From the NCBI RefSeq assembly GCF_058153355.1, contig NZ_CM177019.1: a stretch of 64,000 nt of DNA. The stretch is one strand, 5' to 3'. Shown here piece after piece: positions 6,001-12,000 of the stretch. The first letter of the stretch is position 1; every line of letters begins with the position of its first letter. Made by a program: the position numbers.

Positions 6001-9000
6001 GGTTGTGGGATTATGCCAACCGCTCACAGGCATTATTCCGCGAACTGTATCCGGCATTAAAACAAATTCAATCGAACTATTCCGGCAGATGCCACGACTA
6101 CGGTCATGAGTTCTCGTATGTTATCGGAATGGCGAGAGACGTTTTAATCAATCACACACGAGATGTTGATATTAATGAGCCAGACGGACCAACGAATCTT
6201 TCTGCATGGGTAAGACTTAAGAACAAAGAATTACCTCCTTCACTGCATCACTACTGACAGATTGCCAACGCAACGACCCAGCTTCGGCTGGGTTTTTTAT
6301 TGCTGAATTTTCAATATGAGAGGACATGACAATGAACGAGCTGATAAATAGCAACGCCATCAAAATGACCAGCATTGAAATCGCTGAGTTGGTGGGAAGT
6401 CGTCACGACAAGGTGAAACAATCTATTGAACGACTGGCGGCTCGAGGTGTGATCCGAAATCCCCCAATGGTGGTTTTCGAAAAAATCAATAACTTAGGGT
6501 TACTTCGTGGCGTAGAGGCTTACGTTTTTGAGGGCGAACAAGGTAAGCGAGATAGCATTATTGTCGTCGCCCAATTGTCGCCGGAATTCACCGCTCGTCT
6601 TGTTGACCGTTGGCGAGAGCTTGAAGGGGCAACCGCAAAGATTCCACAAACCTTTTCTGAGGCATTGCGCCTTGCGGCTGACCTTGAAGACCAGAAGGCT
6701 GAATTGGAGAAACAGCTTGCTCTCGCGGCACCTAAAGTTGAGTTTGCCGATCGCGTTGGCGAGTCCAGCGGAATTTTGATTGGAAACTATGCAAAGGTTG
6801 TTGGTATTGGTCCAAACAAACTGTTTGCATGGATGCGCGATCACAAAATCCTTATTGCTTCAGGTTCCCGGCGCAATGTGCCAATGCAGGAATATATGGA
6901 TCGCGGCTATTTCACAGTGAAAGAAACAGCAGTCAACACAAATCACGGAATACAGATATCGTTCACCACAAAAATCACCGGGCGTGGCCAACAGTGGCTG
7001 ACCAGAAAGCTGCTCTATAACGGAATGCTGAAAGTAACAGGGGAGGCTGCTTAATGGCTAACTTACGCAAAGAAGCGCGCGGCAGAGAATGCCAGGTACG
7101 TATTTACGGCGTATGCAATGGCAATCCTGAAACTACAGTTCTGGCACATTACCGGATGGCTGGAATTTGCGGAACGGGAATGAAGCCTGACGACCTGATC
7201 GGCGCATGGGCTTGTAGCGCGTGTCACGATGAAATCGACCGACGCACCCATAACCTCGACAACAAAGACGCCAGACTTTACCACCTCGAAGGCGTGCTCA
7301 GGACGCAGGCGATACTGCTGAAGGAGGGGAAGATTAAGCCATGAACGAATATCAGTTTGTGCTTCCATACCCACCGTCGCTGAATACCTACTGGCGAAGA
7401 CGGGGAAGCCAATACTACATCAGCGATAAAGGCCAGAAATACCGAAAAGATGTACAGCAAATAATCCGCCAACTCAAGTTAGACATTTTCACCAAATCAC
7501 GACTCCGCATCAAAGTAATCGCAGACGTTCCAGACTCCCGCCGCCGCGACCTCGATAACATCCTGAAGGGTTTACTCGACTCCCTTATCTACGCCGGATT
7601 TGCGGAAGACGACGAGCAATTCGATGACATTCGCGTAATTCGTGGTGTGAAAGTACCAGGCGGAAGGCTTGTAATAAAAATCACCGAACTGGAGAACGTA
7701 TGAACAAAGCATTCGAACGATATATGCGCCAGCGTTATGGCAATCGCTACGATCTTACCCGCGATGCTTACGGCTTCTACTGTCGTGAGGTTGTGAAACG
7801 AATGTTTGAAGTGTGGTGTCATTGCAAAGGATAGAGGGGAAGACGATGAGACTCGAACGCGTAGCTAAATTTCATTCGCCAAAAAGCCCGATAATGAGCG
7901 ACTCACCACGGGCTACGGCTTCTGACTCTCTTTCCGGTACTGATGTGATGGCTGCTATGGGGATGGCGCAATCACAAGCCGGATTCGGAATGGCTGCATT
8001 CTGTGGTAAGCACGAACTCAGCCAGAACGACAAACAAAAGGCTATCAACTATCTGATGCAATTTGCACACAAGGTATCGGGGAAATACCGTGGTGTGGCA
8101 AAGCTCGAAGGAAATACTAAGGCAAAGGTACTGCAAGTGCTCGCAACATTCGCTTATGCGGATTATTGTCGTAGTGCCGCGACGCCGGGCGCAAGATGCA
8201 GAGATTGCCACGGAACAGGTCGGGCAGTTGATATAGCAAAAACAGAGCAGTGGGGGAGAGTTGTTGAGAAAGAGTGCGGAAGATGTAAAGGCGTCGGTTA
8301 TTCAAGGATGCCAGCAAGCGCAGCATATCGCGCTGTAACGATGCTAATCCCAAACCTTACTCAACCCACCTGGTCACGCACTGTTAAGCCGCTGTATGAC
8401 GCCCTGGTGGTGCAATGCCACAAAGAAGAGTCAATCGCAGACAACATTTTGAATGCGGTCACACGTTAGCAGCATGATTGCCACGGATGGCAACATATTA
8501 ACGGCATGATATTGACTTTTTGAATAAAGTTGGGTAAATTTGACTCAAGAATGGCAGATTTATATCCGTTCACATTCTTTCGGTTTTTTACCCACCTCAT
8601 CTTTAAGTTCTAAGCGCACTGACATGCGCATCATAAACTCGAGAGCACATAGGAATAGAGCCTGCATAACGGTTTCGGGATTTTTTATTTGGGTCAGTCG
8701 TATAAAGGTCATTACGGAAGGCTGTTAACCTTCTTATCGTGGTTCGAGTCCACGCTGTCCCGCCAAACATGCTGGTTTAGCTCCAATGGTAGAGCAGTCG
8801 CCTTGTAAGCGAATGGGTAGCGGTTCAAGTCCGTTAACCAGCACCATAACTGAGCCGTAGCCACTGGCTATCCTGAATTCATCAGTGACAGTTACGCTGC
8901 GGCCTTCTTTTTCCCTTCCCAATATAAGAACTACGCCATCCGTTATTTGCGGAGGTGAGGCTATGAAATCCATGGACAAAATATCAACGGGCATTGCCTA

Positions 9001-12000
9001 CGGCACCTCCGCAGGCAGTGCCGGCTACTGGTTTTTACAGTGGCTTGATCAGGTCAGTCCATCACAGTGGGCTGCGATTGGTGTGCTGGGAAGTCTGGCG
9101 CTGGGCTTTCTGACTTATCTGACGAATCTGTATTTCAAAATAAGAGAAGATAAGCGTAAGGCTGCGAGAGGTGAATAATGTCGCCATCATTACGCAAGGC
9201 TGTTGCAGTTGCTATTGGTGGCGGGGCTGTTGCTATAGCATCTGTGTTAATCACTGGCCCAGGTGGTAACGATGGTCTGGAAGGTGTCAGCTACATACCA
9301 TACAAAGATATCATTGGTGTATGGACTGTATGTCACGGACACACCGGAAAAGACATCATGCCTGGTAAAACGTATACCGAAGCAGAATGCAAAGCTCTCC
9401 TGAATAAAGACCTTGCCACTGTCGCCAGACAAATTAACCCGTACATCAAAGTCGATATACCGGAAACAACGCGCGGCGCTCTTTACTCGTTCGTTTACAA
9501 CGTGGGCGCTGGCAATTTCAGAACATCGACGCTTCTTCGCAAAATAAACCAGGGCGATATCAAAGGCGCATGTGACCAGCTACGTCGCTGGACATATGCT
9601 GGCGGTAAGCAATGGAAAGGGCTGATGACCCGTCGTGAGATTGAGCGTGAAGTCTGTTTGTGGGGGCAGCAATGAGCAGAGTCACCGCGATTATCTCCGC
9701 TCTGGTTATCTGCATCATCGTCTGCCTGTCATGGGCTGTTAATCATTACCGTGATAACGCCATTACCTACAAAGAGCAGCGCGACAAAAACGCAAGAGAA
9801 CTGAAGCTGGCGAACGCAACCATTACTGACATGCAGCAGCGCCAGCGTGCTGCTGATGCACTCGATGCTAAATACACGAAGGAGTTAGCTGATGCGAAAG
9901 CTGAAAATGATGCTCTTCGGCGCAAGCTTGATAATGGTGGTCGGGTGCTCGTCAAAGGAAAATGCCCTGTGCCATCCTCAGCCGAAACCTCCAGCGCCTC
10001 CGGCATGGGCAATGATGCCACCGTCGAACTCTCTCCAGTTGCTGGACGAAACGTTCTCGGTATCCGGGACGGAATCATCAGCGACCAGACAGCATTGAGA
10101 ATGCTTCAGGAGTACATCAGGACTCAGTGCCTGAAATAAATTTTTTTTGCAAATCACAAAGTCCATTTAATGAGCCTCGCACTTGCGGGGCTTTTATATG
10201 TCCGCAGTAAACCGCGCATCGCAGCGCGTATAAACCCCGAGTCTTTCAGAAAGCTGAGCCTGAGAATTGCCGTATATGGTGGCGACCATCTCGGGGACGG
10301 CTTTTCTGTGCGAACAGGCTCATCTTTCTAAAAGGTAAAGACGCCATGAACAAATCATTAACCGTTCTTCCTTCTGGCAAATACCCGACCATGAGCAGTC
10401 TTGAGATGGTGGATTACATTAATGCTGATCGGGAATCAAAAGCAGAGGCGGAGGGGCTTGTGTTCCCCTGTAAGAAATATCGCAAACTCGAACACCGCAG
10501 TTTCATGAAGAAAGTACCCAGGGGCCTCGGGGATGCAGCTGCAAAATTTTTTGCAACTGATACCTATATCAACGGAACAGGTGGTGTTGTGGAGAGGGAT
10601 ATTTGCAATTTTCCCAAGCGTGAAGCTTGCCTCATGGCAATGAGCTACAGCTATGAGCTTCAGGCGCAGGTGTATGACCACATGACGGAGCTTGAGGGCG
10701 GGAAGGACATTAACCTCCTCGATTTCTCTGGCCTGACCGATATGGCAATCAGCGAAATGCAAAACCGTGTCGCGGCTGCTGAGAAGTTCTCATTTGAAAT
10801 GCACGGTCAAGCAGGTAGCGCTCTCATGACTCGTCGGAAGAAAGAGAAGAAGGCCATTAAAAAGGCTGAGCAGCTTGTGAAGGATCTGATTCAGTTCAAG
10901 CTATGTGACATGGGGGATTTCCCTGATGGTAAACCAGCATGACTCCGATTGATTTCATACATAAAAATGTAACAACCGAGTTAATAAAGCTTGGGTACGA
11001 CCAGAACGCGGCTATGACTGGCGCTGACATGGCGGTGGAGCATTACCGCCGTTGTTCACAAGCCAGCAGAAAAGGCCGAGTTTTCGATGACTGCCTGTAC
11101 ATTGCAAAACAGTGGGCAGGTAGGCAGAAAAGGGAAAAAATGACAACCTGAGAGCTACTTTCACAACGGCTCTTCATTACAAAGCCCATCTACTGGTGGG
11201 CTTGATAATGGCTTATACCCTACACGGGATAACTTAACTGATATCCCTTTTAACGGATAAACGGAGCACAAATAATGGCAAAGCTCACCGACAAACAAGA
11301 GCTGTTTGCCCGTGAGTACCTGAAAGATCTGAACGGCACACAGGCAGCTATCAGGGCGGGCTACAGCGAGAAGACCGCCAATGAGCAGGCATCTCGATTA
11401 TTAGCAAATGTTAATGTTCAAAAATTCGTTGCTGAACTTAAATCCGCCCGCGTTGAGCAGATGGGTATAGATGCCGCCTATGTTCTTCGTAGATTGGTTG
11501 AAATCGACCAGATGGATGTGCTCGACATTCTCCTGCAAAACGGTGAGCTAAAGCCCATTAAAGACTGGCCTAAGGTATGGCGCACAACGCTATCAGGAAT
11601 GGATGTCGTGGAGATGGTATCCGCAGATAGCGCCGCACTTCTGAAGAAAATTAAATGGCCTGATAAGGTTAAAAACCTTGAGTTGCTTGGGCGCCATGTT
11701 TCTGTTCAGGCGTTTAAAGACAACGTCAAAAATGAAGTGACTGGCGCTGATGGAGGACCAGTCAGAACAGAAATTACCAAATTAACGCCTGAGCAGGCCG
11801 CAGAGGTGTATAGAAAAATGATGGGCTAAGTATGCCGTTACCATTCCCCTTCGATTTTAAACATCCTGATTACCAGATGGTTTTTGAATGGCGGATGGAA
11901 CGCCTACAGCGCATTCGCCAGAATCCTGAAATATTGCCTGCACTAAAACAGTTTTACCGTACCAACCCGGCTCAGTTCATTATCGACTGGGGCATGACAA

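Follow-up and report, generated by a model that had tools for sequence, protein, structure and literature searches.

Results

Layout of the lysis locus

The DNA that we analysed (64,000 nucleotides of contig NZ_CM177019.1, hereafter the window) belongs to a Shigella/EIEC-type chromosome and covers part of a prophage that bears an ipaH effector gene. It contains four lysis genes, S, R, Rz and Rz1, at 8963–10139, downstream of a gene for a lambda-type late antiterminator Q and two tRNA genes (Table 1). Reading the ORFs from the sequence placed all four where an earlier, sequence-only reading of this DNA had put a complete lysis cassette. Each ORF is full length, has the length of its prototype and retains its motifs, which bears out the claim of completeness. 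The coupling described in that reading was also found: S and R overlap by one base (TAATG), and R and Rz by four (ATGA). In a profile search, all four proteins scored far above the curated Pfam cut-offs, and PHROGs lysis families matched the cassette proteins at 1e-26 to 1e-75. Alignment with S and R of phage 21 (OL657228) gave 97% and 94.5% identity, respectively, at equal lengths. Longer, GTG-initiated versions of S (from 8885) and Rz (from 9660) appeared in the ORF list and were rejected on the basis of the phage 21 starts, Shine–Dalgarno spacing and protein lengths.

Table 1. Features of the lysis locus and its surroundings (positions in the window)
Feature	Position	Strand	Evidence
Late antiterminator Q, lambda type	7843..8469	+	PF03589 1.3e-57; 204/208 vs lambda Q
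pR'-like putative late promoter, TTGACT-17 nt spacer-TAAATT	8512..8540	+	consensus scan; lambda alignment
tR'-like segment ending in T run	8656..8688	+	33/33 vs lambda 44749-44781
tRNA-Asn (GTT)	8691..8765	+	ARAGORN; 100% identical to phage 21 DNA
tRNA-Thr (TGT)	8771..8846	+	ARAGORN; likewise annotated in phage 21
S, 71-aa product, putative antipinholin, S21-71 equivalent	8963..9178	+	69/71 vs phage 21 S71; PF04971
S, 68-aa product from Met4, putative pinholin, S21-68 equivalent	8972..9178	+	second ATG; phage 21 annotation
R, SAR endolysin, GH24 lysozyme, 165 aa	9178..9675	+	R21 156/165; 3HDE; 4ZPU; PF00959
Rz, i-spanin, chimeric, 155 aa	9672..10139	+	PF03245 2.3e-30; phrog_13 3.4e-75
Rz1, o-spanin, predicted lipoprotein, 68 aa, +1 frame	9892..10098	+	PF06085 3.8e-21; phrog_3198 1.7e-26; SPN3UB 67/68
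Terminator-like GC-rich hairpin with T-rich tail	10172..10193	+	consensus scan, 9 pairs (6 GC)

Upstream of the cassette, positions 7832–8554 are 95.9% identical to lambda. The pR'-like promoter lies in a region homologous to lambda pR' and both of its hexamers are the same as those of lambda; we infer that it acts as the late promoter. The segment at 8656–8688 is what we take to be the tR' terminator. A simple terminator scan left this segment unflagged, and the sites that it found were no more numerous than in shuffled sequences; the tR' assignment therefore rests on the identity to lambda. The hairpin directly past the cassette is a weak terminator candidate, such sites being no commoner than in shuffles. 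Phage 21 annotates tRNA-Asn at the equivalent relative place. Stx phages carry stx between Q and S; the presence of stx or other cargo at this place was ruled out here, since the interval holds just the two tRNA genes.

S has the features of a pinholin gene

The ATG codons at 8963 and 8972 yield M-K-S-M-D-K, which confirms the dual start noticed in the sequence-only reading and matches the S21-71/S21-68 start annotated in phage 21, whose record calls the 71-aa product antiholin. By this homology, S would make both the longer antiholin and the shorter holin. A Shine–Dalgarno-like GGAGG (8951–8955) is located 7 nt 5' of the start, and the TAA stop is at 9176–9178. Folding of the RNA around the dual start (8925–9010) was no stabler than that of shuffles (z −1.45), and the same was true of the equivalent stretch of phage 21 (z −0.51).

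S matched PF04971 ('Bacteriophage P21 holin S') at 2.2e-35 (120.9 bits; the cut-off is 26). Pinholins of the S21 family have two transmembrane domains (TMDs), of which TMD1 is weakly hydrophobic and TMD2 has a glycine zipper, and a charged C-terminus (PMC9025707). TMD1 of S (residues 8–28) has a mean Kyte–Doolittle value of 0.33 and is 57% G/A/S/T, whereas TMD2 (residues 36–58) has a mean of 1.40 and keeps the G40xxxS44xxxG48 spacing; the C-terminal segment of 13 residues is charged. Two residues differ from phage 21 S71: V46A, which falls within TMD2, and R64K. The small holes formed by S21 depolarise the membrane and cannot be passed by folded endolysin (PMC6116005).

R resembles the SAR endolysin of phage 21

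The R gene begins with ATG at 9178 and ends with TGA at 9673–9675. Residues 1–165 of its product align with the solved chain of R21 (PDB 3HDE, E 4e-107), N-terminus included, and with the RrrD structure (4ZPU, E 5.6e-108); the match to PF00959 was 9.5e-46. Absence of the N-terminus from such an alignment, which would have counted against the sequence-only reading, was therefore not seen. The phage 21 counterpart is annotated 'SAR endolysin glycosyl hydrolase'. The lysozyme catalytic triad E-X8-D-X5-T (as defined in PMC9239132) is present as E35, D44 and T50.

A SAR domain consists of N-terminal basic residues followed by a weakly hydrophobic TMD of ~20 residues rich in Gly/Ala/Ser/Thr, and is reportedly often missed as transmembrane by hydropathy-based algorithms (PMC9239132). 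R starts with MSPSLRK, in which the basic R6 and K7 precede a Gly/Ala-rich stretch of 20 residues (8–27) that is 60% G/A/S/T; for comparison, the true TMD of Rz is 32% G/A/S/T. These features and the near-identity to R21 uphold the proposal, made from the sequence, of an endolysin with an N-terminal Gly/Ala-rich SAR segment. Four of the nine substitutions relative to R21 fall within the first 29 residues (P2S, A11V, I18V and S29G), but the substitutions spare the triad and the Gly/Ala character is retained.

Rz and the embedded Rz1

Rz (ATG at 9672, stop at 10137–10139) has an N-terminal TMD (residues 4–22, mean Kyte–Doolittle 2.63) and a periplasmic domain containing Cys98 and Cys153. Rz1 starts with ATG at 9892, 220 nt past the Rz start, and stops at 10096–10098. 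It thus lies entirely inside Rz, in the +1 frame, and, as also claimed before, has a lipobox, VVGC, which fits the consensus [LVI][ASTVI][GAS]C (PMC6139136). The lipobox Cys is Cys19 and the +2 residue is Ser rather than Asp; Rz1 is predicted to be a lipoprotein sorted to the outer membrane. A Shine–Dalgarno-like AGGAG (9880–9884) lies 7 nt 5' of the Rz1 start. The mature protein would have 50 aa, 8 of them Pro, and Rz1 covers 0.47–0.91 of the Rz length, which is typical for an embedded Rz1 (PMC6139136). A role of intermolecular disulfides in spanins has been described (PMC6139136); Cys98 and Cys153 of Rz and Cys27 of Rz1, which is present besides the lipidated Cys19, would be available for putative bonds of this kind.

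The cassette is a mosaic

The locus shares with phage 21 (CPT_21_66 to _70) the gene order, the overlapping junctions, the MKSMDK dual start, the tRNA-Asn/tRNA-Thr pair and, almost without change, the first ~83 residues of Rz; DNA identity is 92.8% over 8681–9919 of the window. In the phage 21 record, the corresponding genes are labelled antiholin, holin class II, SAR endolysin, i-spanin and o-spanin. In contrast, Rz overall is only 63% and Rz1 41% identical, Rz1 having 68 aa here and 60 aa in phage 21. Phage 21 also uses its own late regulator, Q21, with QBE, where our prophage has lambda Q and pR', and carries bor downstream, where we found a Rha/Ant-like gene and no bor. The label 'phage-21-type' given in the sequence-only reading therefore suits the segment from the tRNA genes through S and R to the 5' half of Rz; the 3' half of Rz, Rz1 and the upstream Q/pR'/tR' region are of other lineages.

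Identity to phage 21 DNA drops to 44–72% per 50-nt window in the 3' half of Rz and Rz1. Here the locus resembles Salmonella phage SPN3UB: Rz1 is near-identical (Table 1), as are Rz residues ~62–155, Rz1 is likewise embedded in the +1 frame, and the two proteins have 155 and 68 aa in both. SPN3UB differs in the N-terminal TMD and first helical region of Rz (33–67% DNA identity over 9672–9791), and the gene annotated upstream of its Rz, a 'putative endolysin', is about 400 bp away. The same Rz/Rz1 type occurs in P22-like Salmonella phages, Escherichia phage 2B8 and Stx2a phages. Among informative sites in Rz, 69 of 77 are phage 21-like up to 9884, and 94 of 98 are SPN3UB-like from 9917. Rz is thus a chimera with halves from different lineages and a breakpoint between 9884 and 9917, where Rz1 begins. 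Its anchor and first helical part appear to come from the lambda/phage 21 lineage, and the distal part of Rz, together with all of mature Rz1, to have been swapped in from a second, common lineage, that of SPN3UB, P22-like phages and Stx2 phages.

In two-component spanins, Rz and Rz1 interact via their C-terminal parts, and both are needed for disruption of the outer membrane. The shared SPN3UB-type origin of the C-terminal half of Rz and of Rz1 is consistent with this interaction. Selection that keeps the Rz C-terminal domain and Rz1 cognate may have favoured exchange at the Rz1 start; we put this forward tentatively, since conserved sequence may simply have permitted the crossover.

Lambda S-R-Rz-Rz1 follows the same three-step logic, has Q, pR' and tR' in common with our locus and shows 93% DNA identity to it in the 5' half of Rz. 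In global alignments, S and R of the window were, as expected, only 19% and 20% identical to lambda S (107 aa) and lambda R (158 aa). Lambda S is known as a large-hole holin with three TMDs and lambda R as a cytoplasmic transglycosylase.

Alternative readings of R, Rz1 and the prophage

The N-terminus of R could be an ordinary, cleavable Sec signal peptide, with MSPSLRK as n-region, an h-region of 11 residues and a cut after A19-I20-A21, so that R would be soluble in the periplasm rather than tethered to the membrane. Residues 19–21 do form an A-X-A motif within the hydrophobic stretch, and a signal-peptide predictor might call it. Such a prediction is a poor refuter of the SAR reading, however, because R21 has the same A-I-A|S motif, yet its N-terminal signal is reported to escape removal by signal peptidase and to function as a signal-anchor-release domain (PMC6116005). 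Moreover, the deposited R21 chain (3HDE) comprises all 165 residues, a lysozyme active in the periplasm from the outset would kill the cell ahead of assembly, and a linked pinholin unable to pass folded enzyme would be pointless. We consider cleavage very improbable. The case for dismissing Rz1 as a chance alternate-frame ORF, with Rz alone being a real gene, has even less to recommend it. The same DNA does contain several other alternate-frame ORFs of 30–100 aa and one of 103 aa on the minus strand at 9767–10078, and the PGAP annotation of the closest E. coli genomes leaves Rz1 out and labels Rz merely 'lysis protein'. Because further ORFs share this DNA, embedding is by itself no evidence; the evidence is homology. 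Rz1 matches its Pfam and PHROGs families over the full length and is near-identical to the annotated Rz1 of SPN3UB, and the canonical lipobox, upstream AGGAG, Pro-rich mature part and typical position (PMC6139136) point the same way, which makes a chance origin practically negligible.

A more serious alternative, though still an unlikely one, is that the genes are genuine but a silent relic of a defective prophage, unused for phage release and either slowly decaying or co-opted by the host, like essD-rrrD-rzpD of DLP12. The Shigella/EIEC-type chromosome and the ipaH cargo gene fit this view, and closely related EIEC prophages bear IS66, IS1 or IS600 insertions. The window also stops short of the prophage's left end, so that the prophage as a whole may be incomplete. 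PGAP names the window-like endolysin gene rrrD, after a gene of the cryptic prophage DLP12, and RrrD (4ZPU) does match R. However, DLP12 (essD-rrrD-rzpD/rzoD in E. coli K-12) is a defective remnant, whereas the present cassette is uninterrupted by IS elements and is followed by the terminase and full morphogenesis block of an apparently complete late region. Genes for replication, terminase, head, tail sheath and baseplate appear within the window as long ORFs without interruption. Full-length lysis ORFs, the close match of Q to lambda Q and the lambda hexamers of pR' also speak against a relic. Since the cassette and the lambda-type Q and pR' are intact, the ipaH-carrying prophage may still lyse its host.

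Discussion

Our results argue for a complete pinholin/SAR-endolysin/two-component-spanin cassette of the phage 21 paradigm, which forms part of the late operon in a prophage with lambdoid regulation; we put the probability of this reading at about 0.95, and the sequence holds nothing that contradicts it. We infer the function of the cassette from its homology to the phage 21 genes, which have been studied by experiment, and on the same basis would predict its expression, timing, membrane topology, SAR non-cleavage and lysis as follows. Upon induction, lambda-type Q would allow RNA polymerase from pR' to pass tR' and continue across the two tRNA genes into S-R-Rz/Rz1; the overlapping stop and start codons would couple the translation of these genes. 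S68, initiated at Met4, would be the pinholin, and S71, initiated at Met1 and carrying one extra Lys, the antipinholin that delays triggering. R would be exported by Sec, and its SAR domain, which is weakly hydrophobic and rich in Gly/Ala, would hold it, inactive, at the inner membrane. Once the programmed moment arrives, small (about 2 nm) heptameric channels of the pinholin would abolish the proton-motive force, whereupon the SAR domain would exit the bilayer, and R would refold to the active muramidase (E35/D44/T50) and degrade the murein. Finally, Rz in the inner membrane and the outer-membrane lipoprotein Rz1, linked across the periplasm, would breach the outer membrane, with membrane fusion as the probable means. 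This mechanism is taken from the literature on S21/R21 and Rz/Rz1 (PMC6116005, PMC9239132, PMC9025707, PMC6139136).

The cassette is a known and unremarkable one. Parts of its DNA are present in 5187 of 5426 complete E. coli genomes, and such DNA is usually given the labels class II holin, RrrD lysozyme and lysis protein. Being almost a copy of a phage lysis system that is among the best characterised, it is of little importance beyond correct annotation. Explicit labels (antipinholin/pinholin, SAR endolysin, i-spanin and o-spanin) would improve on the automatic annotation. If selection did favour exchange at the Rz1 start, the breakpoint in Rz would mark the border between functional modules within a pair of overlapping genes.

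Gene organization of the lysis cassette

The four genes of the cassette, encoding a holin (S), an endolysin (R), an i-spanin (Rz) and an o-spanin (Rz1), are listed in the table together with their neighbours. The sequence-only reading had placed a complete cassette at 8963-10139, with TAATG/ATGA coupling and an MKSMDK dual start in the holin, and was right in every detail. In the TAATG junction, the S stop codon TAA (9176-9178) has one base in common with the R start; in the ATGA junction, the Rz start overlaps the R stop codon TGA (9673-9675). GGAGG (8951-8955) precedes the S start by 7 nt, and AGGAG (9880-9884) precedes the Rz1 start by the same distance.

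The lysis cassette and other features of the window, in window order
Feature	Coordinates	Strand	Description
Replication genes, then RusA			before Q; include Toprim/AAA primase-helicase
Q	7843-8469		after RusA; late antiterminator
pR' hexamers	8512-8540		TTGACT, TAAATT
tRNA-Asn(GTT), tRNA-Thr(TGT)	8691-8846		after RusA; sole tRNAs of the 64-kb window
S	8963-9178	+	71 aa; starts M-K-S-M-D-K; ATG at 8963 and 8972 (ORF list, raw sequence)
R	9178-9675	+	165 aa
Rz	9672-10139	+	155 aa
Rz1	9892-10098	+	68 aa; within Rz
Terminator-like hairpin	10172-10193	+	9 pairs (6 GC)
Rha/Ant-like ORF	10346-10942	+	198 aa; between lysis cassette and small terminase
Small terminase	11275-11829		after Rha/Ant-like ORF
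539-aa ORF	11832-13451	+	next after small terminase
Morphogenesis block			long; after small terminase; includes DUF3383 tail-sheath-like protein
IpaH-type effector, E3 ligase	36724-38487	-	right end of prophage; NEL PF14496 (7.6e-77) + LRR_TTSS
Host alpha-2-macroglobulin gene, yfaS-like	38974-43593	+	adjoins IpaH-type gene

Rz1 is read in the +1 frame relative to Rz, from a start offset by 220 nt to an end 41 nt short of the Rz stop. It spans 0.47-0.91 of the Rz length, a position typical for embedded spanins (PMC6139136). An embedded ORF by itself is no proof, because further ORFs in alternate frames occur in the same DNA, one of them 103 aa long on the minus strand (9767-10078; ORF list); family matches decide.

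Family matches and sequence features

All four products matched Pfam families far over the curated cut-offs: S, PF04971 'Bacteriophage P21 holin S' (2.2e-35); R, PF00959 (9.5e-46); Rz, PF03245 (2.3e-30); and Rz1, PF06085 'Lipoprotein Rz1 precursor' (3.8e-21). All four also matched PHROGs lysis families, with E-values of 1e-26 to 1e-75. These matches exclude Rz1 as a chance ORF.

The first transmembrane domain of S is very weakly hydrophobic and the second retains G40, S44 and G48 (feature list of phage 21 holin S21 from PMC9025707). RNA folds of the S dual-start region were not significant, and RNA-level control is therefore not claimed. Over its whole length, R matched the solved structures of the DLP12 prophage lysozyme RrrD (4ZPU; 5.6e-108) and the phage 21 endolysin R21 (3HDE, 165-residue chain; 4e-107). 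Judged by published criteria for the SAR domain and the triad (PMC9239132), R has the catalytic triad E35-X8-D44-X5-T50 and, at its N terminus, the basic residues R6 and K7, then [20 protein letters not shown]. The stretch after R6/K7 is 60% Gly/Ala/Ser/Thr; the corresponding figure for the Rz anchor, a true transmembrane domain, is 32%. Rz1 was correctly described at the outset as a lipobox protein fully embedded in Rz: it has the lipobox VVGC with Cys19, a Ser at +2 and a 50-residue mature part containing eight prolines (lipobox consensus and embedded architecture from PMC6139136). Periplasmic cysteines are Cys98 and Cys153 in Rz and Cys27 in Rz1.

Mosaic relationship to phage 21 and lambda

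The complete phage 21 genome (OL657228) annotates an S21-71 antiholin, an S21-68 class II pinholin, a 'SAR endolysin glycosyl hydrolase', an i-spanin and an o-spanin. As in the window, tRNA-Asn and tRNA-Thr lie directly upstream of its lysis genes. In global alignments with the phage 21 proteins, identity was 69/71 for S (changes V46A and R64K), 156/165 for R, 98/156 for Rz and 29/70 for Rz1. DNA homology to phage 21 is limited to 8681-9919 (92.8% identical).

Comparison of the window, phage 21 and Salmonella phage SPN3UB placed a single breakpoint in Rz between 9884 and 9917, coinciding with the Rz1 start. Rz agrees with phage 21 at 69 of 77 informative sites left of the breakpoint and with SPN3UB at 94 of 98 right of it; the annotated Rz1 of SPN3UB is 67/68 identical to ours. 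The C-terminal interacting part of Rz and Rz1 are thus of one lineage, as expected of a working spanin pair. This distal module is common, with matches in 165 phage records (P22-like Salmonella phages, Escherichia phage 2B8 and Stx2a phages) and in 2379 of 5426 complete E. coli genomes.

Upstream, the regulation is of the lambda type. Q is identical to lambda Q at 204 of 208 residues, and the DNA of 7832-8554, covering both pR' hexamers, is 95.9% identical to lambda. Positions 8656-8688 match lambda 44749-44781, which we take to be the tR' region, at 33/33 bases. Between these segments, the leader interior (~8555-8655, ~100 bases) is without similarity to the lambda 6S leader. The two tRNAs, which sit between tR' and S in the leader of the late operon, match their phage 21 counterparts at 100% identity. 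Homology to phage 21 begins at 8681, at the terminator T run, forming a second sharp mosaic joint. A 59-base segment lying between tRNA-Thr and S (8848-8906) shares 91.5% identity with lambda 44945-45003, a stretch that precedes lambda S; the two holin genes downstream show no sequence relationship. This segment could be a leader element that has been conserved, or else a scar left by recombination. The label 'phage-21-type' thus holds for the tRNAs, S, R and the 5' part of Rz; it fails for the regulator, which is lambda's, and for the distal spanin module, which comes from another common lineage.

Prophage context and distribution

The terminator-like hairpin ~30 bases past the Rz stop is GC-rich with a T-rich tail; in our scan, such sites were no more numerous than in shuffled sequence, which makes the hairpin weak evidence for a terminator. 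The Rha/Ant-like ORF occupies the place that bor, on the opposite strand, has in phage 21 and lambda. It had no Pfam match; its PHROG matches to Ant/transcriptional-regulator families were weak, and that of residues 1-59 to the function-unassigned family phrog_26415 was strong (1.3e-42). PGAP names its equivalent 'Rha family transcriptional regulator'. The 539-aa ORF had no Pfam match at 1e-5. In strain FDAARGOS_943, the annotation gives a terminase large subunit family protein for the gene next after the small terminase, a correspondence by position.

Enteroinvasive E. coli (EIEC) provided the closest genomes (CFSAN029787, RMDEC strains and FDAARGOS_943), and the window therefore probably comes from a Shigella/EIEC-type chromosome, with the IpaH-type type III effector gene as virulence cargo on the prophage. 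These genomes annotate 'class II holin family protein', 'lysozyme RrrD' and 'lysis protein', leaving Rz1 unannotated. The tRNAs and cassette (query 8600-10345) had at least a partial match in 5187 of 5426 complete E. coli genomes.

Discussion

Pfam and PHROGs matches, identity to phage 21, the 3HDE structure and the motifs support the original reading of the locus as pinholin, SAR endolysin and embedded Rz/Rz1. A cleavable signal peptide at the R N terminus is conceivable, given its A-I-A↓S motif, but R21 carries the same motif and is reported to be unprocessed (PMC6116005). The cassette may also be a silent relic in a defective prophage. Close relatives of this prophage in EIEC and O121 genomes (NZ_CM177021.1, NZ_CM177020.1, NZ_CP119441.1 and NZ_CM177011.1) carry IS66-family (ISCro1), IS1 or IS600 insertions in the region homologous to 1-25000, a pattern suggestive of ongoing decay of its copies in some strains, and the left prophage end falls beyond the window. 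Against a relic, all lysis ORFs, Q and pR' are intact here. Intact genes, their motifs and junctions, and their close match to the prototypes are what the sequence shows.

For the pinholin-SAR endolysin cassette, we infer expression, topology, SAR non-cleavage and lysis itself from the phage 21 paradigm (PMC6116005, PMC6139136, PMC9239132). Q-modified polymerase from pR' would pass tR' and the tRNAs into S-R-Rz/Rz1. The pinholin S68 would build up in the inner membrane, held back by the antipinholin S71, while R, exported by Sec, would stay membrane-bound and inactive through its SAR domain. Pinholin triggering would collapse the proton-motive force, upon which the SAR domain would exit the bilayer and R refold into an active muramidase; the Rz-Rz1 complex would then remove the outer membrane. 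The cassette is a textbook system, already known, in a common prophage.
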